DNA from: Patescibacteria group bacterium
GTDB lineage: Bacteria; Patescibacteriota; Minisyncoccia; Phycocordibacterales; UBA12079
Length of the DNA: 64,000 nt
Assembly (NCBI GenBank): GCA_043800905.1
Contig: JAZDMO010000007.1
Coordinates: 1,627 to 65,626 of the forward strand
Direction: 5' to 3'
The notes beneath the pieces were generated by a model that saw only the letters and a list, made by a program, of their open reading frames with translations, was not told the DNA's origin and did no database searches. Of the stretch, positions 3,786 to 52,807 are shown in pieces. Within the stretch, counting starts at the first letter, position 1. Each line of letters starts with the position of its first letter. A program made the translations under genes and the position numbers.

Positions 3786-4469
3786 ATGAGCAATAAATAT
3801 TCTATTCTCTTAAAAGATTTAAGACTTAAAAAAGGTTTAACTCAAAAGGAATTAGCTAAAAAATTAGGAATTTCTCGTCCTTCCTATATTGCTATCGAGC
3901 AAGGGAAGAGAGACATCACCCTGAATGAATTTGAAAAATTGTCAGGTGTTTTGAGTGTGTCTTTTGATGATTTTGAGAGAGGGGAATTGCCTGATTATGA
4001 AAAATATAAACAAATGATTTTAACCTTTTTGAGAATGAGTGATGGAATAACCAAAACTAAGTTAGCTAAGTTGGTGTATCTTTCTGATTTTGCTTGGTTT
4101 TATTTTAATTTAAAAAGCATGAGTGGAATGCCTTATAGGAAGATTCAATACGGTCCTGTTCCTGATGCTTACTTTAGAGCTATTGATGAATTAGAAAATA
4201 GTGGAAAAATTTTAATTAATTGTAAACAGAAAGATGATAAAGAAATGTTTATTATTTCTGAATCAGAGAGCAATAAAAACCAAAAGTTAGATTCCATTTT
4301 GAAAGATGAGGTTGATTTAATGAAAAATATTTTTAAAAAGTGGAAAAATAAAAAGACAGCAGAAATTGTTAATTTTACCCATAATCAATTGCCGTATTTA
4401 ATCGCAGAAGATGAAGAGATTATTTCTTATGGCCTTATAACTCAAGAAAATCCAGATGAAATCTATTAA
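3786..4469 (+). CDS. XRE-family HTH fused to a Panacea/DUF4065 (SocA/PanA-like) domain; antitoxin-like
   Basis: N-terminal LKKGLTQKELAKKLGISRPSYIAIEQGKRDITLNEFEKL is a Cro/C1-type HTH. The C-terminal ITKTKLAKLVYLSDFAWFY...YGPVPD resembles the DUF4065/Panacea antitoxin domain. It overlaps the next ORF by 14 bp. Confidence 0.55.
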   Translation: MSNKYSILLKDLRLKKGLTQKELAKKLGISRPSYIAIEQGKRDITLNEFEKLSGVLSVSFDDFERGELPDYEKYKQMILTFLRMSDGITKTKLAKLVYLSDFAWFYFNLKSMSGMPYRKIQYGPVPDAYFRAIDELENSGKILINCKQKDDKEMFIISESESNKNQKLDSILKDEVDLMKNIFKKWKNKKTAEIVNFTHNQLPYLIAEDEEIISYGLITQENPDEIY

Positions 4470-4881: not shown

Positions 4882-6456
4882 ATGCAAAAGGTTATAGATT
4901 TTATTCAAAAACATACTAACTTAAGTTTTTTTATTTTAGCGCTAGTTTTGGTTTTGGTGATGTATGGTAGTAGTCTAGCCGGCTCTTTTGTTTTTGATGA
5001 TAGGTCTATTATTAGTTATCAAAGTTTTTTTCAAAATCCCGCAAATTGGTGGGAAGTTTTAAAGATGCCCTATTGGGGTTATGAAGCGGGGCTTTATCGT
5101 CCGGTGACAATTTTTTCCTATGGGCTAAATTTTGCTATTTTTGGTTCTGGAGCTTGGAGTTTTCATCTTATCAATATTCTTTTGTATGTTTTTTCGGGTT
5201 ATCTTTTATTTTTGTTTCTCAAAAAAGTTTTATGGGGAAAATATCGCAGGCAGATTGCTTGGGTGAGTGCACTTTTATTTTTGATTTTACCGATTCATAC
5301 CGAAGTGGTGGCAAATATTGTAGGGCGAGCGGAAATTTTTGCCTTAATGTTTTCTTTATTAGGTCTTCTTGAGCTGATTAAAAAAAATCCAAACAAATGG
5401 ATAACCGCTTTATGGTTTTTCTTAGCTATGGGTAGTAAGGAAACGGCTATCGCGGTTTTGCCTATTGCGTTTTTAGTGTGGTTTTCTCGATCTAAGTTTT
5501 TAGAAAAAAAGAAAATTACTCTTCGAGATTTAGAGTTTTATTTTTTCCCAGCTTTTTTGTCGGCTTTTGTTTATTTAAGTTTCCGTTTTCTGATTTTAGG
5601 TTTTTATTTTTTTTCCAATAACGCGAGTCTCGTAGAAAATCCTTTAAAATTTGTTTCTGTTTCAGAAAGAATTTTTACAGCTTTGAAAATTTTATCTATG
5701 TATGTTTATAAAAGTTTAGTGCCCTTCAATCTTTGTTCTGATTATTCTTATAATCAGATTGTAGTTAGTTCTAGTTTTTGGGAAAGCGGAGTAATCGTCG
5801 GTTTTCTGATTTTAGTTTTTTCTTTTGTGGGAATTTTCTATTTTTTTAAAAAGAATTTTAATTTTACTTTGGCGTTGATATTCTTCTTCTTTCCTTTTTT
5901 TATAGTTTCTAATTTATGGAATGCTATCGGGACAATTGCAGGGGAGAGGCTTTTCTTTTATCCTTCAGTGGGTTTATGTATTTTCTTAGGAATATTTTTT
6001 GTTTGGTTGTGGAACTTAGCTAAAAGCGAAAATATCAAAAAAATTTTAATCACTCTATTTGTGTTATTGAGTTTTTTTTATACAATCCGCAGTTTTGACC
6101 GAGCCTTAGATTGGATGAGCGAAGAAAAACTTTTTATTTCTGCAAGTCAGTGTGCACCTCAAAGTGTATTATCTCTTTCTAATTTAGCCACGGTTTATTA
6201 TTTTAAAGGAGATTATGAACAAGCAGAAAAGATTATTTTAGATTCTTATGAAATTTATGATGGTTATACAAAAGCTAATAATAATCTTGGTTTAATTTAT
6301 TGGAGAGGGGGAGAAATAGAAAAAGCTAAAGAGCAATTTTTTAAAACTTTTGAGCACTTTCCGCCCTATGAAGGGGTTTATGAAAATTTAGTTTTATTTT
6401 ATTTATCTCAAAATAATGAAAAAGAAGCTATGAAGTGGTATAAAATAGGTTATTAG
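4882..6456 (+). CDS. polytopic membrane protein with N-terminal GT-C-like (PMT/ArnT-type) glycosyltransferase region and C-terminal TPR repeats
   Basis: About 11 predicted TM helices. The early FVFDD loop motif is typical of GT-C aspartate-rich loops. The C-terminal approx. 120 aa has TPR-like repeats (ATVYYFKGDYEQAEKI, NNLGLIYWRGGEIEKAKEQF). Confidence 0.5.
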   Translation: MQKVIDFIQKHTNLSFFILALVLVLVMYGSSLAGSFVFDDRSIISYQSFFQNPANWWEVLKMPYWGYEAGLYRPVTIFSYGLNFAIFGSGAWSFHLINILLYVFSGYLLFLFLKKVLWGKYRRQIAWVSALLFLILPIHTEVVANIVGRAEIFALMFSLLGLLELIKKNPNKWITALWFFLAMGSKETAIAVLPIAFLVWFSRSKFLEKKKITLRDLEFYFFPAFLSAFVYLSFRFLILGFYFFSNNASLVENPLKFVSVSERIFTALKILSMYVYKSLVPFNLCSDYSYNQIVVSSSFWESGVIVGFLILVFSFVGIFYFFKKNFNFTLALIFFFFPFFIVSNLWNAIGTIAGERLFFYPSVGLCIFLGIFFVWLWNLAKSENIKKILITLFVLLSFFYTIRSFDRALDWMSEEKLFISASQCAPQSVLSLSNLATVYYFKGDYEQAEKIILDSYEIYDGYTKANNNLGLIYWRGGEIEKAKEQFFKTFEHFPPYEGVYENLVLFYLSQNNEKEAMKWYKIGY

Positions 6457-9425: not shown

Positions 9426-9998
9426 TTGATGGATACTTCTTTTATTCCAAAAAAAGATTTCACTCGTAAAGAAAATAGTAAGAATTATATTGGTTTTGCT
9501 ACCATAGTTTCTATTGTTATTTTTATTGTCGCATTATTTGCTGCGGGAGGGGTTTACTTTTATAAACAGTTTTTAATGGGAGAAATTGAAAATAAATCTA
9601 TTACTTTGACTCAAGAAAAAGGCGGTTTAGATTTAAATGTAATTCAAGAACTTTCTCGTTTCGATGAACGAATAGAATCTGCTACTAAATTATTAAATTC
9701 TCACGTTTCTTTGATTCCTCTTTTTGAATTTTTAGAAGAGAATACTTTAAAAGGGGTTCGTTACGAGCGTTTTACTTTTTCGGTAGAAAAAGGAGGCTTA
9801 GCTCTTGATTTAAAAGGTGAGGCAAGTAGCTACGCAACCGTAGCTTTACAGTCAGAAATTTTTGGAAGTAATAAAAATATTATTGATCCTATTTTTTCTG
9901 ATTTAGGAGTAAGCCCTTCTGGTAATATTACTTTTTCTTTTTCTTCTAAATTAGATCCACGATTAATTTCTTATCGAGATAATTTAACTACTGAATAA
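9426..9998 (+). CDS. pilN: PilN-like bitopic pilus alignment protein
   Basis: Position directly after pilM. A single TM helix near the N-terminus (FATIVSIVIFIVALFAAGGVYFY) followed by a periplasmic domain. No strong sequence signature. Confidence 0.5.
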   Translation: MMDTSFIPKKDFTRKENSKNYIGFATIVSIVIFIVALFAAGGVYFYKQFLMGEIENKSITLTQEKGGLDLNVIQELSRFDERIESATKLLNSHVSLIPLFEFLEENTLKGVRYERFTFSVEKGGLALDLKGEASSYATVALQSEIFGSNKNIIDPIFSDLGVSPSGNITFSFSSKLDPRLISYRDNLTTE

Positions 9999-12754: not shown

Positions 12755-12843
12755 CGTCTGTCTGTTCGTCATTACGAGGAAAAAATTAAGGTTCAAAAGT
12801 TTTAAAACTTTTGAACCTTAATTTTTGACGTGGTAATCCAGAA
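12755..12843. repeat. copy of an approx. 90-bp hairpin repeat (cgtcattacgagg..aaggttcaaaagttttaaaacttttgaacctt..gacgtggtaatccag)
   Basis: Near-identical to 19029-19132. The internal hairpin differs from that copy by compensatory changes (ggttc/gaacc here, gcctc/gaggc there). Confidence 0.6.
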
Positions 12844-16429: not shown

Positions 16430-16574
16430 AAATTGAGAATTGTAAACTGAAAATTGTTTTGATTTATCCCCAGAAAGACTTTCTTTTCTTTGCTTTTTGG
16501 GAGTATAATCAAATAAACGCAAATTATATTTGTTATTAATTATTAGTTATTAATTTAATATTATTAAAAATAAT

Positions 16575-17069
16575 ATGAAGAAATTTATGAAAAAGGATAC
16601 AAAAGGTTTTTCTCTTATCGAACTTTTGATTGTGGTTGCGATCATGGGAATTCTATCCGCCGTTGTTTTAAGTTCTTTGGGAACTGCTCGACAAAAAGCG
16701 AGAGATGCTAGAAGAATTTCAGACGTAAAGGATGCCGCTAAGATTTTAGTTATTGCTTCTGATGTGGGAGGAATAAATATTTCAGGTTGTACCACCGCTA
16801 ACGTAGCTTTGAATACTTGTGGAGATGGAACTGATCAATTTATGGATTTAAGAAGTTATTCTGACCCATCAACAGCAACAGCTGTTTGTAGCGGTACAAC
16901 AACTGAAGGTCCTTGTGAATATGGTATTGCAAATATAGATGGAGACGCAAGAGCAACTACAGAAGATTACCAAATTTGTTTTTATCTTGAATATGGAGCA
17001 GGAGATCTTTCTTCTGGTTTAAATTCAGTTGTGGGTCCAATTGGAAACTTGGTAGCTGGTTGTAATTAA
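16575..17069 (+). CDS. type IV (major) pilin, paralog A
   Basis: Class III signal KKDTKG|FSLIELLIVVAIMGILSAVV with Glu at +5. Cys-rich C-terminal domain. The 5' flank and both ends are nearly identical to the gene at 18408. Confidence 0.75.
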   Translation: MKKFMKKDTKGFSLIELLIVVAIMGILSAVVLSSLGTARQKARDARRISDVKDAAKILVIASDVGGINISGCTTANVALNTCGDGTDQFMDLRSYSDPSTATAVCSGTTTEGPCEYGIANIDGDARATTEDYQICFYLEYGAGDLSSGLNSVVGPIGNLVAGCN

Positions 17070-17500: not shown

Positions 17501-18198
17501 TTATGTTTTTTAATTTTATAAAAAAAGAAAAGCAAGGTTTTCTAGAATATCAGACGGGGTTTACCCCATCAGAAATTTTTATGAAGATATTTGGTGATAT
17601 AAAGAAAAAAATAAGCAGTTTTTTAAAAAATGAAAAGCAAGGTTTTCTAGAATATCAGACGGGGTTTACCCCGTCAGGAATTTTTAATAGTTTGTTATCT
17701 ATAATAAGAAACAAAATGAAAAAAAATCTTTTTAATAAAAAACAAGATTCTTTGAAATTCCAATCGGGGTTTACTTTAACTGAACTTTTGGTGGCTATCG
17801 CGATTATTGGAATTTTATCTTCCATTGTTTTAACTTCAATGAGTGGGGCGAGAGAAAGGGCTAAGGATGGAAAAAGAATTTCTGATATTAAACAAATTCA
17901 GTTAGCTTTAGAATTATATTACGATGTAAATTCTGCTTATCCTGTAGATAATGGTTCTCAAAATATTTTGTATAACGATCCTAAACCTTTAACTAATTTT
18001 TTAAAAATTTCTCAAGACCCCGATGGAACTAATTACCATTATTGGAGTACGGGACAAGATTATCACCTAGGAGCTGTCTTACAACAAACAAATAATGCTT
18101 TAGATGACGACGATGATGCTACTGGTGGTTTTGAAGGTTCTAGTTCTGATTGTGGTTCTGTGACCGGAACAGATTTTTGTTACGATGTAACTCCTTAA
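17464..18198 (+). CDS. type IV pilin preceded by two tandem degenerate prepilin-leader cassettes; the functional start is probably the ATG at 17716
   Basis: The ORF contains two copies of an approx. 107-bp unit encoding KEKQGFLEYQTGFTPSEIF (17527-17580 and 17633-17687). These are followed by a canonical prepilin MKKNLFNKKQDSLKFQSG|FTLTELLVAIAIIGILSSIVL. Confidence 0.6.
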   Translation: MYRNWLCNNYPLIMFFNFIKKEKQGFLEYQTGFTPSEIFMKIFGDIKKKISSFLKNEKQGFLEYQTGFTPSGIFNSLLSIIRNKMKKNLFNKKQDSLKFQSGFTLTELLVAIAIIGILSSIVLTSMSGARERAKDGKRISDIKQIQLALELYYDVNSAYPVDNGSQNILYNDPKPLTNFLKISQDPDGTNYHYWSTGQDYHLGAVLQQTNNALDDDDDATGGFEGSSSDCGSVTGTDFCYDVTP

Positions 18199-18204
18199 AT
18201 TAAA

Positions 18205-18246
18205 AATGAAAAAAGCGGTGGGCTGGTGTCCACCGCTTTTTTTAAT
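18205..18246 (+). terminator. intrinsic terminator after the pilin at 17464
   Basis: aaaaagcggtgggctggtgtccaccgcttttttt: a GC hairpin plus a T-run. Confidence 0.6.
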
Positions 18247-18407
18247 AGAGTTATAAAAAGTAATCATTGTTTTGTTTAATTATTAATTATATTATTTAAA
18301 TGGGATAATTTTTAATCCTTTTAATTGAAGGTATTGTTTAATCAAATAGACACAAATTACATTTGTTATTAATTATTAGTTATTAATTTAATATTATTAA
18401 AAATAAG

Positions 18408-18917
18408 ATGAAGAAATTTATGAAAAAGGATATAAAAGGTTTTTCCCTTATTGAACTTTTGATTGTGGTTGCAATCATGGGAATTCTATCTGCTGTTGTT
18501 TTGAGTTCTCTAGGAACCGCTCGTCAAAAAGCAAGAGACGCTAGAAGAATTTCAGACGTAAAGGATGCCGCTAAGATTTTAGTTATTGCTTCTGATGTGG
18601 GAGGGGTGAGCATCTCAGGTTGTGGTTCTCCTGATGTCGCCTTAAAAACTTGTGGAGACCCTGATATTGAAAATGATCCTTTTATGGATTTAAGAAGTTA
18701 TTCTGACCCTTCTGTTTCTGAAGAAGTTTGTTCAAGTGGAAGAATTATTGCCGACGGTCCCTGTGAGTACGGAATATCTGATATGACTGGTGATGAAGCG
18801 CCCACCACAGAAGATTACCAAATCTGTTTTTTCCTTGAATATGGAGCGGGAGATCTTTCCGCTGGCCTAAATTCTGTTGTGGGTCCAATTGGAAACTTGG
18901 TAGCTGGTTGTAACTAA
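18408..18917 (+). CDS. type IV (major) pilin, paralog B
   Basis: The first approx. 60 aa and last approx. 35 aa are nearly identical to the gene at 16575. The central approx. 70 aa diverge. 78 bp of upstream sequence is conserved with 16497-16574. Confidence 0.75.
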   Translation: MKKFMKKDIKGFSLIELLIVVAIMGILSAVVLSSLGTARQKARDARRISDVKDAAKILVIASDVGGVSISGCGSPDVALKTCGDPDIENDPFMDLRSYSDPSVSEEVCSSGRIIADGPCEYGISDMTGDEAPTTEDYQICFFLEYGAGDLSAGLNSVVGPIGNLVAGCN

Positions 18918-18984
18918 ATTAATTTTTTAAGAAATTTAAGGTTTTTAATAACATAAATAATTATTATTTTCTTCTATTATTTAC

Positions 18985-19022
18985 TTATAAAGTAAAACCC
19001 GTCTTTAGGCGGGTTTTTATTA
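18985..19022 (+). terminator. intrinsic terminator after pilin paralog B
   Basis: gtaaaacccgtctttaggcgggtttttatt. Confidence 0.55.
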
Positions 19023-19028
19023 TCCTTT

Positions 19029-19132
19029 CTCGCAATGACGGTCCGCTTAGGGCGGACCGTCATTGCGAGGAAAAAATTAAGCCTCAAAAGTTTTAAAACT
19101 TTTGAGGCTTAATTTTTGACGTGGCAATCCAG
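19029..19132. repeat. palindromic repeat element (ctcgcaatgacggtccgc..gcggaccgtcattgcgagg + aagcctcaaaagttttaaaacttttgaggctt + gacgtggcaatccag)
   Basis: Two perfect hairpins in series. Same family as 12755-12843 and 31203-31302. Confidence 0.6.
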
Positions 19133-19225
19133 TAAAAATTTAAGTCTTTAAATCTAACCGAAACTATTTTTCAGATGGAAGGGTTTTGTTTTAATGTTCT
19201 GGTGTTTTAATGCTATAATATTTTT

Positions 19226-20050
19226 ATGGAAAAATACCTACTTTATTTTTTTGTTTTTGTTTTGGGAACTATTATTGGTTCTTTTTTGAATGTAGTGATT
19301 TTACGTTTTAAAAAAAATTCTTTAAATGGAAGTTCTTCTTGTCCCCGATGTAAAAAAAATTTAAGATGGTTTGAATTGATTCCAGTTTTAAGCTTCCTTT
19401 TTTTGAAGGGCAGATGTCGCTATTGTCAAAAGAAAATTTCTTGGCAGTATCCTTTAGTAGAAATAGCAACAGGATTATTATTTTTATTTTCTTTTATTTT
19501 TTCCGCCCAAGGCGGATCCGCCTTGGGCGGACAATTTTTCATTAACCTTATTATTTTATGGGTTGTTTTTAGTTTATTGGTAGTAATTTTTGTTTATGAT
19601 TTATACCATAAAATTATTCCTAATATTTTTGTATATCTTTTTATATTATTTTCTTTTTTAAAAGTCATCATAACTTTTCAAAATTTTTCTTTCGGGGCTG
19701 ATATTTGGGCGGGGTTTTTAGTCTCTTTTCCTTTTGCTTTTTTATGGTTTGTTTCAGGAGGAAGGTGGCTTGGTTTTGGAGATGTAAAATTAGCCTTAGG
19801 TATTGGTTGGTTTTTAGGTTTAGTTCAGGGTTCTACTGCAGTTATTTTAGCTGTTTGGATGGGAGCCTTGGTTGGTTTGATTTTGGTTGGTTTAACAAAG
19901 TTATCCGAAAAACATAGATTGTTTTTTAGGCTTAATAATTTTACAATTAAAAGTGAATTACCTTTTGCCCCCTTTTTAATATTAGGTATTGTGATCACTT
20001 TTTTCTTTGACTTAGATGTTTGGGGCTTGGGAGCTTTGCTTCATGGTTAA
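19226..20050 (+). CDS. pilD: prepilin peptidase PilD (A24 family) carrying an in-frame palindromic insertion
   Basis: N-terminal zinc-ribbon CPRC...CRYC, a polytopic membrane domain, and the C-terminal GFGDVKL catalytic Asp region. 19503-19530 is the perfect palindrome ccgcccaaggcggatccgccttgggcgg, which encodes SAQGGSALGGQ in frame. Confidence 0.8.
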   Translation: MEKYLLYFFVFVLGTIIGSFLNVVILRFKKNSLNGSSSCPRCKKNLRWFELIPVLSFLFLKGRCRYCQKKISWQYPLVEIATGLLFLFSFIFSAQGGSALGGQFFINLIILWVVFSLLVVIFVYDLYHKIIPNIFVYLFILFSFLKVIITFQNFSFGADIWAGFLVSFPFAFLWFVSGGRWLGFGDVKLALGIGWFLGLVQGSTAVILAVWMGALVGLILVGLTKLSEKHRLFFRLNNFTIKSELPFAPFLILGIVITFFFDLDVWGLGALLHG

Positions 20051-20055
20051 TCTTT

Positions 20056-20631
20056 ATGAAATTTAAATTCTCCAAAATTTTTTTAGGAAATAATCAGAGA
20101 GGATTTTCTTTGATGGAACTTTTAGTGACCATTGCTATTTTAATGGTGGTTTCTGGTTTAGTTTTTTTTAATCAATCACAATTTAATAATAGTACTTTGA
20201 TAGAAAATTTGGCTTATGAAATGTCCTTAGCTATTCGACAAGCCCAGTCTTTCGGCTTACAAGTAAAAGGAATTGGGGCAGATTTTGATAATGGTTATGG
20301 TGTTTATTTTGAAAAGGACTCTGATGAATTTTTAATTTTTTCTGATACCTATCCTGTAACCCCTAATTTTGTTTATGATGACGGTTATGATGAGATTATT
20401 GATCGCTTGAAGATGACCAACAAAAATCGTATAGACTATTTATGTATTGATGAAAATTGTTTAGTTGATACCTTGAATATTAGTTTTAAAAGACCAAATC
20501 CCAATGCAATTATTAAAGTTGATGATTCGGGAACAGAAGGTTCAGAGGGATCCATTCATATTATTTCACCGAAGGGTTTAGAAAAGAATATTAATGTGAA
20601 TGGCGTTGGCCAAATTTATATAGGATCGTAA
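20056..20631 (+). CDS. pseudopilin/minor pilin (prepilin-type N-terminus)
   Basis: MKFKFSKIFLGNNQRG|FSLMELLVTIAILMVVSGLVFF. The ATG at 20056 is taken as the start because the tracked ORF's 5' end overlaps the pilD stop. Confidence 0.6.
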   Translation: MKFKFSKIFLGNNQRGFSLMELLVTIAILMVVSGLVFFNQSQFNNSTLIENLAYEMSLAIRQAQSFGLQVKGIGADFDNGYGVYFEKDSDEFLIFSDTYPVTPNFVYDDGYDEIIDRLKMTNKNRIDYLCIDENCLVDTLNISFKRPNPNAIIKVDDSGTEGSEGSIHIISPKGLEKNINVNGVGQIYIGS

Positions 20632-20651
20632 AAGTCAAAAAACATTAAAGC

Positions 20652-21371
20652 ATGAAAATATTAAAACAAAAATTAAAAAGAATTAATTCTCTAGAATATC
20701 AGATGGGGTTTATCCTGTCAGTAATTTTTAAAAATATGATTAATTTTTTAAAAAACAAAACGACTAAAATATTCAAAGATAAAAAAGAGGGTTCTTTGAA
20801 ATTTCAAACAGGGTTTACATTGGTGGAAATGATTACAGCTGTAGCAATTTTTGCTTTGGTGATGGTTGTGGCTATGGGTTCTTTATTGAATGTCCTATCT
20901 GCTAATAGACAAAGCCAAGCAATTCAAACCGCAGTGAATAACCTTAATCTTGCAATGGAAACCATGTCTCGTGAGATTAGAACAGGTTACAATTATCATT
21001 GTGGTTCCTGTTTTGGGTCAGATTGTACTACTGATAATGACTGCCCCGCAGGTGATTCTTCTATTGCCTTTGAACCTTATAATGGGAATCCCTCTTCTTA
21101 TAGTGATCAAGTAATTTTTATGTTTGATCAGGATAATCAACAGATTCTAAAATCGACTAACAACGGAGATGATTATTTAGGATTAACTTCTCCTGAATTA
21201 CATGTGGAAGATTTGACTTTTATTGTAGTCGGTTCGGATCCTAGTGATACTAGACATCCTAAGGTCTTAATTACCGCTAGCGGTTATGTTCAAAGCGATT
21301 CTAATACTCAAACTTCTTTTAACTTACAAACAACAGTTTCTCAAAGGTTAATTGATTTTGATTTATGGTAA
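20652..21371 (+). CDS. pseudopilin with one upstream degenerate leader cassette; probable true start at the ATG at 20736
   Basis: Upstream cassette NSLEYQMGFILSVIF, then MINFLKNKTTKIFKDKKEGSLKFQTG|FTLVEMITAVAIFALVMVV. Confidence 0.55.
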   Translation: MKILKQKLKRINSLEYQMGFILSVIFKNMINFLKNKTTKIFKDKKEGSLKFQTGFTLVEMITAVAIFALVMVVAMGSLLNVLSANRQSQAIQTAVNNLNLAMETMSREIRTGYNYHCGSCFGSDCTTDNDCPAGDSSIAFEPYNGNPSSYSDQVIFMFDQDNQQILKSTNNGDDYLGLTSPELHVEDLTFIVVGSDPSDTRHPKVLITASGYVQSDSNTQTSFNLQTTVSQRLIDFDLW

Positions 21372-22219
21372 AAATAATGAATTTAAAAAATAAAAAACAA
21401 GATTCTTTGAAATTCCAATCGGGGTTTACCCCGTCAGAAATTTTTAGTAGTTTGCTATCTATAATAAGAAACAAAATGAAAAAAAATCTTTTTAATAAAA
21501 AACAAGATTCTTTGAAATATCAGACGGGGTTTACCCCATCAGAAATTTTTATAAAGATATTTGGTAATATAAAGAAAAAAATAAGCAGGTTTTTAAAAAA
21601 TGAAAAGCAAGGTTTTGTAGAATATCAGACGGGGTTTACCCTGTCAGTAATTTTTAAAAATATGATTAATTTTTTAAAAAACAAAACGACTAAAATATTC
21701 AAAGATAAAAAAGTGGGTTCTTTGAAATTTCAAACAGGGTTTACCCTGATAGAAACTTTTGTGGCTGTTACGGTTTTGTTGATTGCCATCACCGGTCCTT
21801 TGTATTTAGTAGCAAAAGGTTTGTCAGTTTCTAAATCTGCTAAAAATCAGGTGACAGCTATGTATTTGGCTCAAGAAGCTGTTGAATATATTCGAAATAT
21901 TCGAGATGAAAATATTTTAAAAGGTCAGGATTGGCTGACTGGTTTAGATTATTGTTTAAATGGTAGTAAGTGTGCTATTGATTCGCCTCAAGAAGAAATC
22001 CTCTTGTGTTCGGGAGTTTGTAATTTTTTGAAATATGATGAAGATAAATATCTTTATACCTATTCCAGCGGGACAGCTAGTCCTTTTCGTCGAGAAATTA
22101 GTCTTTTACCTATTGGCAACACTGGGACAGAGGTAGAAATTTTAGTTGATATGTATTGGAATGATGGACCAAATCAAAAAGATTTTGAGGTTAGAGAACA
22201 TTTGTTGAATTGGCAATAA
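21365..22219 (+). CDS. pseudopilin whose 5' region is a mosaic of four prepilin-leader cassettes
   Basis: Encoded cassettes: KKQDSLKFQSGFTPSEIF, KKQDSLKYQTGFTPSEIF, KQGFVEYQTGFTLSVIF, and finally VGSLKFQTG|FTLIETFVAVTVLLIAITG. DNA blocks are near-identical to 17583-17680, 17700-17760 and 20736-20820. Confidence 0.55.
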   Translation: MVKIMNLKNKKQDSLKFQSGFTPSEIFSSLLSIIRNKMKKNLFNKKQDSLKYQTGFTPSEIFIKIFGNIKKKISRFLKNEKQGFVEYQTGFTLSVIFKNMINFLKNKTTKIFKDKKVGSLKFQTGFTLIETFVAVTVLLIAITGPLYLVAKGLSVSKSAKNQVTAMYLAQEAVEYIRNIRDENILKGQDWLTGLDYCLNGSKCAIDSPQEEILLCSGVCNFLKYDEDKYLYTYSSGTASPFRREISLLPIGNTGTEVEILVDMYWNDGPNQKDFEVREHLLNWQ

Positions 22220-22275: not shown

Positions 22276-22833
22276 ATGTTTAATTTAAGAAAAATATTAA
22301 AACAAAATAAAAAAATAAACAAAGAAAATTTACGAAGTAAATTTTCTCCTTTACGAAATTTCAACTTTATGAACCTTAAGACTAGTTCTGGATTTGTTTC
22401 TATGATTGCCTTATTATTAGCAAATATTTTTTTGATAATTGGTTTGTCCGTTTTTAATATTGCTTTAAGAGAATTTACTCTTTCCTCTGGCTCGCGGGAA
22501 TCTCTTTTTGCTTTTTATGCAGCTGATGGAGGAATGGAATGTGCTTTATATTGGGATTTAAAAGAAGGTGTTTTTGCTACTAGTACTTCTGCTACAGAAT
22601 TAAATTGTAATAACCAGACTATTGCCATAACCTCTGATAGGTCTGTGGCTGGAGATGGAAGAGAGAATTCTTTTAGCTATAGTTTTATAGAAGGTGAGTT
22701 AAATTCACCTTGTGTTACTGTTTATTTAAATAAAAAAGATGATGGAGGGACTGTTATCCGCTCTTATGGTAAAAATTCTTGTGATGAAAGCAATAATCGA
22801 CGAGTAGAAAGAGCTTGGCAAGTGACTTATTAA
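22276..22833 (+). CDS. hypothetical PilX-like minor pilin/pilus-associated protein
   Basis: N-terminal basic leader, then a hydrophobic helix SSGFVSMIALLLANIFLIIGLSVF and a Cys-containing C-domain. Last gene of the pilus block. Confidence 0.35.
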   Translation: MFNLRKILKQNKKINKENLRSKFSPLRNFNFMNLKTSSGFVSMIALLLANIFLIIGLSVFNIALREFTLSSGSRESLFAFYAADGGMECALYWDLKEGVFATSTSATELNCNNQTIAITSDRSVAGDGRENSFSYSFIEGELNSPCVTVYLNKKDDGGTVIRSYGKNSCDESNNRRVERAWQVTY

Positions 22834-31404: not shown

Positions 31405-31440
31405 TAATGTTGGTTTAACATTGGTGTGTTGTGTTATAAT
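31405..31440 (+). promoter_or_regulatory. candidate sigma70-type promoter with extended -10 (TGtTATAAT) for the ATPase gene
   Basis: ttggtg (31411-31416) ...18 bp... tgttataat (31432-31440). This lies inside the 5' end of the tracked ORF, so the real start codon is probably downstream (possibly GTG 31450, leaderless). Confidence 0.3.
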
Positions 31441-33234
31441 TACAAGAACGTGGAAGAAGAAAAAAACCCAATTACATATTTTGCTGAAGTTGATCGACGA
31501 AATAGGAAAACCCCTTTCGGAATTAAAGCTTCCGATAGAACTCGTCATGTCTATGTCATCGGAAAAACCGGAATGGGAAAATCTACTATGTTGGAAAACA
31601 TGGCTGTGCAAGATATTCAACAAGGAAATGGCCTATGTTTTATTGACCCGCACGGTAGTTCAGTAAAAAAATTTTTAGATTATGTGCCTGAAAATAGAAT
31701 TGATGATGTAATCTATTTTGCCCCTTTTGATGTGGATCACCCCATTGCTTTTAATGTAATGGAAGACGTGGGAGCAGACAAAAGACACTTAGTAGCTCAG
31801 GGTTTGCTTTCGGCTTTCAAGAAAATCTGGGGTGAAGAAACTTTTTCAGACAGAATGGAACACATTACTAATAATACTTTATTGGCTCTTTTGGAATATC
31901 CAGGATCTACCATGTTGGGAATGACTAAAATATTTACCGATGCTAAATATCGAAAGAAGGTGGTGGATAATGTAACTGACCCTTCGGTAAAAGCTTTTTG
32001 GACAGAGGAGTTTGCTGGTTGGGATGATCGTTACCGAAAAGATGCCTATGCCGCTATTTTGAACAAGGTGGGGCAATTTACTTCTAATCCTTTGATTCGA
32101 AATATTATTGGACAAGAAAAATCTTCTTTTGATTTTAGGGATATTTTAGATTCAAAAAAAATTTTGTTGGTGAATCTTTCTATTGGGCAAATTGGTGAAG
32201 CTAACGCAGATTTGTTGGGTTCTATGTTGACTACCAAAATTTATTTAGCCGCCATGAGCCGTGCCGATGTGCGTTCAGCTGAATTACATAATTTACCGAA
32301 TTTTTATTTATATATTGATGAATTTCAAAATTTAGCCAATGATTCTTTTGCTGATATTCTTTCACAGGCGAGAAAGTATAAATTAAATTTAACTTTAGCT
32401 CACCAGTATATTGAACAGATGCCAGAGAAGGTCGCTGCTGCTGTCTTTGGAAACGTGGGGACCATGATTACTTTTAGAGTTGGTGCTACTGATGCAGAAG
32501 TTTTAGAAAAAGAATTTGCGCCTGAATTTACTGCTGAAGATTTAGTTAATCTTGGTTTTGCTCAAATATATCTAAAATTAATGATAGATGGAATTGGTTC
32601 TAATCCTTTTTCAGCAAAAACTTTACCACCAATTCAAGTTCCAAATTTGTCTTTTAAAAATGAAATTCTGGAAGCTTCTCGAAAAAGTTTTACTGTACCA
32701 AGAGAAGAAATCGAAAAGAAAATTATGGAATGGCATGCTTCTGGTGATCCTGCTGGGAAAAAACAAAATCAACCAGTTGTGCCTGTTCCGGTTCAAGAAA
32801 GAAAAGAAATTCCTAATAAAAATTTTAAACCAAGAGATTTTTCTTCAAAAAACAATATTAATCAAGCAAATTCAGCTCCGGTTCGCACTCCAGAAAAACG
32901 TCTAAGTTTAAATGAATTAGGAAATCAGTCCAAAAACATTCGTCAATCAAAATTTGTTAAGCCTAAAATAATTATGCCAGATACTAAGGATTTGAGAACG
33001 GCATTGTCTGAAGCCTTACAAAATGTACAAAATAATTCTTTGAAAAAAGAGAATGAAATGAAAGTTGAAGTAAAGGCGCAGGAAGATACTACTCCAAAAA
33101 CAATTATTAACCCTCCTACAGAAGTAAAAAAGGAAATCAAAGAAAGAGATGAAAGAAAATTGGTGGTACAAGAAATTCCTAAAGATCGGTTGGAAAAACT
33201 TTTGTATGTAAAAAGTCCCGATGAGGAAAAATAG
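31426..33234 (+). CDS. TraD/VirD4/TraG-like (type IV coupling protein family) or DUF87 HerA-like P-loop ATPase with a long K/E-rich low-complexity tail
   Basis: Walker A VIGKTGMGKST; CFIDPHG; Walker B/DE IDEFQNL; the ARKY(K/G)..L.LAHQ motif shared by T4CP and DUF87 ATPases. The C-terminal approx. 170 aa are low-complexity and charged. Confidence 0.55.
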   Translation: MLCYNYKNVEEEKNPITYFAEVDRRNRKTPFGIKASDRTRHVYVIGKTGMGKSTMLENMAVQDIQQGNGLCFIDPHGSSVKKFLDYVPENRIDDVIYFAPFDVDHPIAFNVMEDVGADKRHLVAQGLLSAFKKIWGEETFSDRMEHITNNTLLALLEYPGSTMLGMTKIFTDAKYRKKVVDNVTDPSVKAFWTEEFAGWDDRYRKDAYAAILNKVGQFTSNPLIRNIIGQEKSSFDFRDILDSKKILLVNLSIGQIGEANADLLGSMLTTKIYLAAMSRADVRSAELHNLPNFYLYIDEFQNLANDSFADILSQARKYKLNLTLAHQYIEQMPEKVAAAVFGNVGTMITFRVGATDAEVLEKEFAPEFTAEDLVNLGFAQIYLKLMIDGIGSNPFSAKTLPPIQVPNLSFKNEILEASRKSFTVPREEIEKKIMEWHASGDPAGKKQNQPVVPVPVQERKEIPNKNFKPRDFSSKNNINQANSAPVRTPEKRLSLNELGNQSKNIRQSKFVKPKIIMPDTKDLRTALSEALQNVQNNSLKKENEMKVEVKAQEDTTPKTIINPPTEVKKEIKERDERKLVVQEIPKDRLEKLLYVKSPDEEK

Positions 33235-51901: not shown

Positions 51902-52807
51902 CTAGATTTTCATCCAAGTTAAGGGTATTGGATTATATTTATTTTTTTCTAAATCAGTAAACCACTTTTCAGGGGCTATTACTATTTTGTCAGGGTTTGG
52001 GTTTAACCAAGCTCCCCACCAACTAAAAGAACTGTTAGCAATAACATTGTGTTTACACAAGCTCATCAATATTAAATCTTCATAATTTTTGTTTTCTTCA
52101 ACAAAGGTAATAGAGAATTCGGTTTTAAAATTTTCTTTTGCCCACCAGATATCATCAGAAAAAACAAAGATTTTTAGATCTTTGAATTTTTCTGAAATTT
52201 TTTGGATAGCGTTTTGATAATAATCTAAAGAACAGATTTCATAAATTTTGTTTGTTTTTTTATTATTGATATAATCGCTTCTGCGAATATGGATAGAAAT
52301 TGAATTTGTGTTTTCAATAATCCCTTTTAATTTTTGATTTTTAATTGAGAATTCATTTTTTAAAGTAAATTCTTCACGAATAATATTTTTAATATTTTTT
52401 CCGTTCGAGATAAATCCGTCTTGGGCGGAAAAATATTTTTCGTTTTGCCAATAACCATCTAGATAAATATCTTTGTTGGAATTTTCTAGTATTTTTTTAT
52501 TAAAATTATTCGGCTTTTCAGTAATATAAATTGAATTATCTGAAAAAAATAAATTATAAAAAAGATATTTCCAATTATTTATTTTTTTATATTTCTTTAA
52601 CTTTTTTATTTCGTCATTGTTCGCTATCTTTTCAACTATATTAAAAATTCCTAATTCATATTTGCGAGGAGTCGTGTTTTTTTTAATGTGATTAAACCAA
52701 GAGATATCTAATTTTAATTCGGTTTTATTTTTTTCAGCCAAAGCACGTCCAATTGCATATTGGAACATTTGATTTCCTAAACCGCCTGTTAATTTAACAA
52801 TAATCAT
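51902..52807 (-). CDS. glycosyltransferase family 11 alpha-1,2-fucosyltransferase (FutC-like)
   Basis: GGLGNQMFQYA at the N-terminus, HIRRSDY, CKHNVIANSSFSWWGAWL, KIVIAPEKWF: all four GT11 hallmarks. Confidence 0.7.
   Translation of the reverse strand: MIIVKLTGGLGNQMFQYAIGRALAEKNKTELKLDISWFNHIKKNTTPRKYELGIFNIVEKIANNDEIKKLKKYKKINNWKYLFYNLFFSDNSIYITEKPNNFNKKILENSNKDIYLDGYWQNEKYFSAQDGFISNGKNIKNIIREEFTLKNEFSIKNQKLKGIIENTNSISIHIRRSDYINNKKTNKIYEICSLDYYQNAIQKISEKFKDLKIFVFSDDIWWAKENFKTEFSITFVEENKNYEDLILMSLCKHNVIANSSFSWWGAWLNPNPDKIVIAPEKWFTDLEKNKYNPIPLTWMKI

Follow-up and report, generated by a model that had tools for sequence, protein, structure and literature searches.

The leader-coding regions of three pilin genes in the type IV pilus cluster of the window (the whole 64,000-nucleotide stretch of Patescibacteria DNA analyzed here, part of an 82-kb contig of a metagenome-assembled genome) are built from a repeated 105-bp unit, present in six full and three 5'-truncated copies. 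Each full unit consists of a 101-nt element with CCCC...GGGG terminal inverted repeats and, in six of six cases, a flanking 4-bp direct repeat, TTTA. We consider it probable that the units are copies of a non-autonomous insertion element resembling a MITE (miniature transposable element with inverted repeats), which is translated as additional leader and removed by the prepilin peptidase PilD, and which is tolerated because that removal would leave the mature pilin unchanged. Like a MITE, the element is small and carries no transposase gene, ends in inverted repeats, is flanked by a target duplication, and is found as near-identical copies at several loci whose occupancy differs between genomes.

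Tandem Repeats Finder and a repeat finder gave a strict period of 105 nt (35 codons) at positions 17514 to 17717 and 21388 to 21760, with one further unit at about 20687. The terminal inverted repeats are imperfect, 13 to 15 nt in length, and read 5'-CCCCGTCAGAAAT ... ATWTCARACGGGG-3'. Within the prepilin cleavage site, the element lies inside GGG-TTT-ACN, which codes for Gly(-1), Phe(+1), and Thr(+2). The left copy of the target, together with the left repeat, encodes G-F-T-P-S/L-E, referred to here as the pseudo site; the interior codes for a Lys-rich stretch; and the right repeat encodes ..F/Y-Q/L-T/S-G, which supplies a Gly(-1) ahead of the second TTTA, so that the genuine G|FT is regenerated beside the hydrophobic helix. 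The coding content of one element amounts to about 33 Lys-rich residues. All units are in frame with the pilins and contain no stop codon, whereas the other two frames contain two to five stops per unit. The original prediction had placed tandem leader units of 55 to 110 bp before the three genes; the tandem arrangement holds, but the unit has a fixed length of 105 bp, and each gene additionally starts with a 5'-truncated copy. The same prediction took the pseudo cleavage sites to be degenerate copies of a leader. We find instead that they are a by-product of insertion anatomy, the duplicated target GGG-TTTA joined to the left repeat.

The starts and lengths of genes A and C follow the NCBI annotation (locus tags V1851_), and the three pilin genes and their elements lie on the + strand. 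Pilin gene A (T2SSG/N_methyl; 17503 to 18198; 231 amino acids from the NCBI ATG) begins with a truncated element of the interior type that we call alpha (17514 to 17559), which comprises only the 3' part and right repeat and aligns with 17619 to 17664. It is followed by two full elements: eA1 (alpha; 17564 to 17664; CCCCATCAGAAAT...GAATATCAGACGGGG), between TTTA at 17560 to 17563 and 17665 to 17668, and eA2 (beta; 17669 to 17769; CCCCGTCAGGAATTT...AAATTCCAATCGGGG), followed by TTTA at 17770 to 17773. The right end of eA2 encodes ..KFQSG and so provides the Gly(-1) of the genuine site, G|FTLTELL, with its GGG codon at 17767 to 17769. The leader of minor-pilin gene B (20652 to 21371) contains a remnant right repeat (about 20689 to 20708) and one full element, eB1 (gamma; 20713 to 20813; TCCTGTCAGTAAT...AAATTTCAAACAGGG), between TTTA at 20709 to 20712 and 20814 to 20817; the genuine site is G|FTLVEMI, with GGG at 20811 to 20813. 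Minor-pilin gene C (21377 to 22219; 280 amino acids per NCBI) has the longest array, a truncated beta-type copy (21388 to 21424) and three full elements between TTTA repeats: eC1 (beta; 21429 to 21529), eC2 (alpha; 21534 to 21634), and eC3 (gamma; 21639 to 21739; CCCTGTCAG...CAAACAGGG), the last followed by TTTA at 21740 to 21743. Its genuine site is G|FTLIETF, with GGG at 21737 to 21739. The open reading frame (ORF) of gene C is 284 amino acids long, the NCBI start lying four codons further in, and an exact look-up of the 284-residue ORF returned no record.

The mosaic sharing of blocks between genes, almost base for base, was borne out: eA1 and eC2 are 96% identical, eA2 and eC1 93%, and eB1 and eC3 98%, compared with only 40 to 48% for the adjacent 101 nt of mature-pilin coding sequence in the same pairs of genes. 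Virtual excision of the elements, each with one TTTA, leaves three ordinary leaders, MFFNFIKKEKQGFLEYQTG|FTLTELL, MKILKQKLKRINSLEYQMG|FTLVEMI, and MNLKNKKQDSLKFQSG|FTLIETF. The features of a class III signal peptide (a basic leader, Gly(-1), Phe(+1), Glu(+5), and a hydrophobic helix of about 20 residues) are present at three of three genuine sites, assigned from Pfam N_methyl for genes A and B and from sequence for gene C; the six pseudo sites lack the hydrophobic helix and are not class III signal peptides. The leaders of genes A to C reach 88 to 124 residues and are modular, with 124 residues in the gene C precursor. The enzyme that removes these extended leaders is presumably the PilD encoded at 19226 to 20050 on the + strand (Pfam A24_N_bact and Peptidase_A24).

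The pseudo sites coincide with an 18-nt palindrome, GACGGGGTTTACCCCGTC, that had been noted at the degenerate copies but not the functional ones. The distribution is as described, in that the palindrome is absent from three of three genuine sites, and the explanation is that it is the junction of two abutting elements. The exact copy (17658 to 17675) joins the right repeat of eA1, TTTA, and the left repeat of eA2; the other junctions, with one to three mismatches, are at 17553 to 17570, 20702 to 20719, 21418 to 21435, 21523 to 21540, and 21628 to 21645. These six upstream sites are the only matches with three or fewer mismatches in the 64 kb, where 0.01 would be expected by chance. As a conserved RNA hairpin the palindrome was rejected: for 13 units from five genomes, RNAalifold keeps three GGG/CCC pairs (-2.9 kcal/mol) with no covariation, and local pairing is at shuffle level (68% of cells over 14 putative pairs; 183 of 500 shuffles were equally good).

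The original prediction had suggested for the palindrome a role such as a recombination site, an attenuator hairpin, or a phase-variation module. That the cassettes in this way control which pilin leader is expressed we regard as very improbable. The number of units does differ between genomes, and in the genome of the window the hairpin is followed by AGNAATTTTT, like a weak intrinsic terminator; four of the six junctions pass a loose terminator scan, and the region has 13 such sites against 4.0 expected. The U-run, however, begins 4 nt past the stem, relatives do not conserve the local palindrome, and only the genome of the window gives terminator-like scores, so an intrinsic terminator or attenuator was rejected. 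A shufflon or inversion switch was rejected as well: Pfam found no recombinase in or near the pilus cluster (30 window ORFs), no inverted variant was seen in 160 loci, where all copies are direct, and by our own reading of the sequence, inversion of the loop in relative L001 would create an in-frame stop. Nor are the elements integron attC sites (5'-RYYYAAC ... GTTRRRY-3'), as they read GTTAGA ... TCTAAC, in the opposite order, and no integrase is present. A promoter scan found no + strand promoter in the units, and in an Rfam search of the window only five tRNAs reached the gathering threshold, the units giving no match even at an E value of 1 or less.

Pairing is found between the two ends of a unit rather than within the local palindrome. 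Taken as its reverse complement, the 3' half of a pseudo site matches the leader end at the next site, about 90 nt downstream. Across the same 13 units, 87.4% of cells pair between the 5' and 3' ends, four pairs show compensatory changes, and covariation reaches a score of 0.170, compared with 0.096 ± 0.014 for shuffles (0 of 500 as high); slid controls are 26 to 52% paired. Conserved pairing of the two ends, again with compensatory changes, extends to other Patescibacteria and to Omnitrophota and Planctomycetota. Within the window, GGAATTT/AAATTCC pairs are altered on both arms together between eA2 and eC1, and eC3 has a compensatory change of C-G to T-A in both ends, the gamma units having CCCTGT/ACAGGG instead of CCCCGT/ACGGGG. 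The ends of the three L001 copies and of the L006 element, ACCCCGTTAGAAAC ... GTTTCTAACGGGGT, form a perfect 14-nt inverted repeat, and relative to these the ...GAAAT/ATTTC... pair of L003 is again compensatory. In single-strand folds the termini pair in every element, with z scores of -3 to -9 in relatives, -3.1 for eA2, and about 0 for the alpha copies of the window, including eA1 with its degenerate stem; the alpha copies are evidently old, with degraded ends.

The constraint on the units acts on nucleotides. A core of GGG-TTT-ACC-CCG-TYA-GAA-A is invariant in the pseudo sites of four AT-rich genomes, in which GGG, ACC, and CCG are rare codons (15%, 10 to 18%, and 4 to 11% usage, respectively), whereas genuine sites vary freely at synonymous positions; codon usage was ruled out on both grounds as the reason for the conserved core. 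The ratio of nonsynonymous to synonymous differences per site between units (pN/pS; Nei-Gojobori counts) is approximately 0.5 to 1.1, which leaves no purifying selection on the protein beyond the open frame. Because the rare-codon core is invariant, protein constraint is weak, and the local hairpin is not conserved, we conclude that the nucleotides themselves are constrained but not as a local hairpin. The suggestion of a DNA- or RNA-level role thus stands for DNA and falls for the conserved local hairpin. These data also bear on the idea that the nested sites function as protein, with PilD cutting every G|F to release 35-residue N-methylated cationic peptides, or with the pseudo sites acting as decoys that titrate PilD. 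The pseudo sites retain Gly(-1), Phe(+1), and usually Glu(+5), and the encoded stretches are Lys-rich and amphipathic. Yet pN/pS between copies is near 1, the P-S/L-E and Q/L-T/S-G residues are dictated by the inverted repeats, the peptides are unrelated between element families, and a frameshifted element in L003 (4981 to 5088) retains its nucleotide ends, and we give the idea very little credence.

Locus retrieval based on proteins supplied 80 loci from genomes and 80 from metagenomes in which relatives were examined, and 1.65 Mb was scanned. L001 (in three genes), L003, L005, and L006 have in-frame pseudo sites 102 to 105 nt upstream of genuine ones. Of 542 distinct genuine prepilin sites in the 160 Paceibacteria loci, 31 are preceded by an in-frame GF[TS], versus 2 in length-matched controls. 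GC-rich Paceibacteria have an in-frame GFT[PST]x[SR]E 75 to 81 nt upstream of genuine sites (L033 at 4918, 6470, and 7291; L044 at 7249; L059 at 7932; L021 at 7959; L095 at 5498), with 0 to 3 of 16 positions complementary and no detectable inverted repeats.

A first profile search with long cassettes gave few matches, the query being short, yet it led to examples in other phyla. In the Omnitrophota contig L161 (two genes, two elements each), and in L162 and L163, the arrangement is GGA-TTTA, CCCCGTTAGARAT, 27 to 39 nt, ATYTCTAACGGGG, and TTTA-C; the host gene in L162 is of the DUF1559 pilin-like type. Virtual excision again gives canonical prepilins, MKVLNSKKG|FTLTEVLV (L163), MNKQRG|FTLIELLV (L162), and ..KESG|FTLIELLVV (L161). 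Single elements have perfect terminal repeats of 13 to 21 nt and belong to several families, always with CCC...GGG termini and TTYA flanks (for example in L001, L006, L163, L161, L025, L030, L012/L093, L018, L119, L158, L081, and L155). Anchored comparison distinguished the end families CCCCGTTAGARAT, CCCSCACACY, CCCAGCACYAC, and CCCCGAATCAC, all with CCC...GGG termini. A structural scan independent of sequence (TTYA, a 13-nt arm, its reverse complement within 30 to 140 nt, and TTYA) found 31 distinct cases in the 1.65 Mb, versus 3 in shuffled sequence. Near-identical copies occur within single genomes, three at about 97% identity in L001 and copies in two genes each in L161 and L119. Overall the elements measure 45 to 125 nt, with loops of 27 to about 100 nt.

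In nearly all cases the insertion leaves the reading frame intact. Element plus duplication comes to 39, 45, 57, 69, 72, 78, 84, 102, 105, or 129 nt, all multiples of three, in about 12 independent families with two exceptions. The first (L003, 4988 to 5087) has a 1-nt deletion and is decayed, although its 14-nt inverted ends are still perfect; in this decayed element (4937 to 5013, upstream of the gene A orthologue) the pseudo site is now a separate 25-codon ORF, MTKLRNLKSKNKFQLGFTPLEIVGI ending at a stop, out of the pilin frame. The second (L081, 5971 to 6015) adds 49 nt, but a different upstream frame stays open, giving ..EGLPSTTFSFLKTKSSAG|FTLIETF, a peptide also found in proteins P0026 and P0038. 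The 98- to 101-nt elements of Patescibacteria have an ATG in the loop, while the 53-nt elements lack an internal start codon, so that a gene carrying one could be expressed only by read-through from the original start.

The short-form signature, ..GFTPLEIxIPxRxxGRFLTG|FTLIELL, is frequent in DUF1559-type proteins of Planctomycetota/Phycisphaerae and in Omnitrophota. An exhaustive profile search of 1.84 billion cluster representatives with GFTPLEI..[FS]LTG|FTLIELL gave 216 matches at an E value of 1e-3 or less, a few of which are false positives, such as ankyrin GFTPLH repeats. One representative, P0236 (129 amino acids), contains SGFTPLEFRT five times, mostly at 22-residue (66-nt) spacing, and looks like a translated nucleotide repeat array resembling the left end of an element.

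Occupancy differs between syntenic orthologues, as comparison across relatives had been expected to reveal if the number of units varies. Genes A, B, and C carry 2, 1, and 3 elements in the window, plus truncated copies; 1 (decayed), 1, and 0 in L003; and 1, 0 (a remnant right end only), and 1 in L001, which has one more in another pilin gene. L005 has one element in the orthologue of the gene at 20020 of the window. In their mature parts, genes A, B, and C of the window are 70%, 59%, and 58% identical to those of L003 and 68%, 63%, and 58% identical to those of L001. These empty and filled sites are compared between species at 58 to 70% amino acid identity and are not alleles within one population.

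Copies also occur outside pilin genes. A CCCCGTTAGA family copy in L048 (3697 to 3800) lies between pilT and a small ORF, with the duplication TTCA on the strand shown, and another in L018 (11223 to 11345), also with TTCA, lies directly upstream of the gatC start. IMG/VR contigs contain copies of this family with TCTG (L164) and TTCA/ATCA (L165). The same family is represented in L012 (1645 to 1890) by an intergenic tandem pair, each copy 111 nt long with perfect 14-nt ends, CCCCGTTAGAAGTT...AACTTCTAACGGGG; the pair lies just upstream of a pilin gene, within which are two in-frame 125-nt elements of another end family. Pilin sites have TTTA or TTCA as the target duplication; in L165 the duplication is imperfect, and the tandem pair in L012 lacks one. 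Separately, non-pilin copies or remnants of the form CCCGTTAG...CTAACGGG abut start codons (..CTAACGGG-ATGAA..) in L018, L048, and L155 (about 9818 to 9840), the gatC of L018 being an example; either the 4-bp target TGAA overlaps ATGAA starts, or an element end immediately upstream of a start does no harm or is of use.

These comparisons weigh on two further explanations. One dispenses with a mobile element and holds that pilin 5' ends were duplicated locally, by slippage, unequal crossing-over, or template switching, and kept because they are cleaved off. A truncated copy at the head of each window array, blocks that are mosaic between genes, homology among pilin 5' ends that favors recombination, and the pseudo sites of GC-rich relatives, which have no inverted repeats, are all in keeping with it. 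A direct repeat of variable sequence flanking inverted termini is, however, the signature of insertion and differs from that of fold-back or slippage duplication; a fold-back or template-switch origin was rejected because TTTA is repeated directly whereas the arms are inverted. In single-copy cases, moreover, the left flank is unrelated to the right repeat, non-pilin copies have other 4-bp duplications, and the same ends recur across phyla. We therefore judge local duplication to be distinctly unlikely.

The other explanation, also unlikely but somewhat less so, is that the stem is a selected cis-regulatory or processing RNA of pilin mRNAs, acting on translation, RNase III cleavage, or stability, so that its spread reflects function, or that a MITE was exapted for this purpose. 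It would account for the covarying arms, for stems of 13 to 21 bp with the z scores of -3 to -9 seen in relatives, for hairpins that enclose an internal start codon in the 98- to 101-nt elements, and for the terminator-like junctions of the window. It sits poorly with a repeat family that is also found in unrelated contexts with target duplications, with tandem arrays of up to three to four copies whose presence varies among orthologues, with loops unconstrained in length and sequence, and with window alpha copies that persist without a stem; no Rfam family matches.

We propose that the insertion element works as follows. It would land in the Gly(-1)-Phe(+1)-Thr(+2) codons, duplicating TTTA; translation from the original gene start would read through it, its length with the duplication being a multiple of three and free of stops; and PilD would cut at the last G|F, beside the hydrophobic helix, so that the whole insertion leaves with the leader and the mature pilin is unchanged. 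The regenerated target could accept further copies, by landing or by duplication, giving tandem arrays. Since expression would depend on read-through, surviving copies are in frame and stop-free and code for basic residues compatible with a cytoplasmic leader.

Several observations weigh against this proposal. No transposase was found in the window, by Pfam on 30 ORFs, or in any fetched locus, and no full-length insertion sequence or distant pair of the end motif was found in the 1.65 Mb of fetched loci; with neither a transposase nor an autonomous partner with the same ends, mobility is argued from anatomy. By a rough estimate from the fetched loci, about 24 of some 540 pilin sites are occupied (about 4%), versus about 5 among tens of thousands of other TTYA sites (well under 0.1%), an enrichment that the 4-bp TTYA target alone cannot explain. 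It implies that the target preference is wider, that copies spread secondarily through recombination or gene conversion, or that survivorship in gene-dense genomes is strong. A wider preference is possible, as the pilin site resembles abutted element ends, and truncated head copies would offer homology for recombination between leaders. Every window array in fact begins with a truncated copy, which indicates recombination as well as insertion. The degraded ends of the alpha copies (fold z of about 0) also count against the proposal; the conserved stem would also fit a selected RNA structure; and the pseudo sites of GC-rich Paceibacteria may be fully decayed elements or may have a second origin.

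More tentatively, and as a possibility rather than an expectation, the elements may form a class of selfish DNA, operating in Patescibacteria, Omnitrophota, and Planctomycetota, that is specialized for the site of prepilin cleavage. Such a class would actively target GGN-TTYA-C, which mimics its own GGGG-TTTA-CCCC, encode a leader-compatible basic peptide, regenerate Gly(-1), and have its footprint erased by the host peptidase. If so, it would parallel, at the level of protein, the removal of introns or inteins, and if targeting is active, it would be a natural case of sequence-specific, in-frame, scarless insertion. The host might also have co-opted selfish elements of this kind, using the hairpin to adjust pilin expression.

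The pilus cluster occupies 8.1 to 22.8 kb of the window and, by Pfam on window ORFs, encodes PilM, PilO, the ATPases PilB and PilT, PilC, five to six N_methyl pilins, PilD, and a PilX-like protein. Two paralogous genes resembling major pilins (16575 to 17069 and 18408 to 18917) are 80% identical, the N-terminal 66 and C-terminal approximately 50 residues being near-identical and the center variable; the AT-rich repeats upstream are likewise duplicated (16522 to 16567 and 18361 to 18400), an arrangement that resembles cassette-type pilin variation. The PilX-like gene (22276 to 22833) has a 37-residue leader with ..LRSKFSPLRNF.., and its counterpart in L003 (8526 to 9068) has ..LRSKFPLKAI..; the window sequence is faintly GFTPLE-like and could be a very old, decayed element. 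Within pilD, a 36-nt GC-rich perfect palindrome (19499 to 19534; TTCCGCCCAAGGCGGATCCGCCTTGGGCGGA) is in frame and coincides with 7 residues (..SAQGGSALGGQ..) that are inserted when compared with the orthologue in L003. Half-motifs related to it lie at 19042 to 19055 and 52415 to 52428, and the genome of the window may thus contain another kind of palindromic in-frame insertion. Two near-identical 46-nt perfect palindromes, AAAAATTAAGSYTCAAAAGTTTTAAAACTTTTGARSCTTAATTTTT, are located 3' of the 18408 pilin gene (19072 to 19117) and 3' of pilB (12781 to 12826), the former directly adjoined by a hairpin with 21-nt arms (19026 to 19072); these may be bidirectional terminators or another repeat family. 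Elsewhere in the window, genes for GmrSD_N plus HNH endonuclease (1679 to 2770), a helix-turn-helix and SocA/Panacea antitoxin-like protein (3786 to 4469), and a TrwB/TraG-like coupling protein (31426 to 33234) suggest defense or mobile-DNA content; none is a transposase.

The insertion element offers an account of an odd but widespread pattern in annotation, in which pilin-like proteins have very long leaders and carry a duplicated motif, 'GFTPLE...LTGFTL', the short form of which is present in at least about 200 protein clusters from several phyla. It also suggests a route by which mobile DNA can persist within essential genes of compact genomes, hidden in a peptide that the host cleaves off. 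For annotation, start-codon and signal-peptide predictions are unreliable for these pilins, pseudo sites should not be taken as processing sites, and leader length is an undependable marker of pilin class in these lineages.

No description of such elements was found when the literature was searched, in full text, for the peptide motifs and for MITEs located in pilins or signal peptides, in agreement with the earlier impression that leader-cassette arrays had not been reported. The anatomy is that of an ordinary MITE; the niche, a signal-peptidase site regenerated so that the host removes the product, is apparently undescribed. In-frame insertions of MITEs have been documented for the Rickettsia palindromic elements (RPEs), ERIC, Coxiella QMITE1, and Anabaena MITEs (PMC10969869); the RPE account there rests on Ogata et al. 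2000/2002, and the article does not mention pilins or signal peptides. RPEs are the closest in kind: small palindromic repeats, in several families, lying in frame in coding genes of small, gene-dense genomes and translated with the host protein (PMC10969869). In the pilin elements the frame is kept and stops are absent, and translation is predicted. RPEs, compared here by description rather than by sequence, differ in that they occur in many unrelated genes, stay in the mature protein, and belong to different hosts and phyla, whereas the pilin elements sit at a single defined place, the Gly-Phe-Thr codons of prepilins, where they restore the site of cleavage, and are predicted to be removed after translation.

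Classical MITEs (Neisseria Correia/NEMIS, ERIC, Coxiella QMITE1, and Anabaena elements) likewise combine a length of 45 to 125 nt, inverted repeats, a short target duplication, many copies, no transposase coding, and occasional in-frame fusions. Most of their copies are intergenic and the target is generic, whereas the pilin elements are mostly at one codon triplet in one class of protein and nearly all in frame. The target of Correia elements, for example, is TA.

Other systems tie repeated DNA modules to type IV pilin genes. The R64-type pilV shufflon and Neisseria pilE/pilS act on the mature pilin, altering its C-terminal or variable part through site-specific inversion or gene conversion, with a dedicated recombinase or RecA; the pilin elements, by contrast, affect only the cleaved leader, and no recombinase is present. 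Type IVb pilins have leaders of about 15 to 30 residues and resemble the present case in having an extended basic N-terminal leader cut by prepilin peptidase, but the window leaders, at 88 to 124 residues, are modular, and the number of modules varies between orthologues. By analogy only, inteins and self-splicing introns are also selfish insertions in essential genes whose footprint is erased before the mature product; they differ in that removal of the pilin element would be carried out by the host PilD, at a site that the element itself regenerates, with neither self-splicing nor a homing endonuclease.

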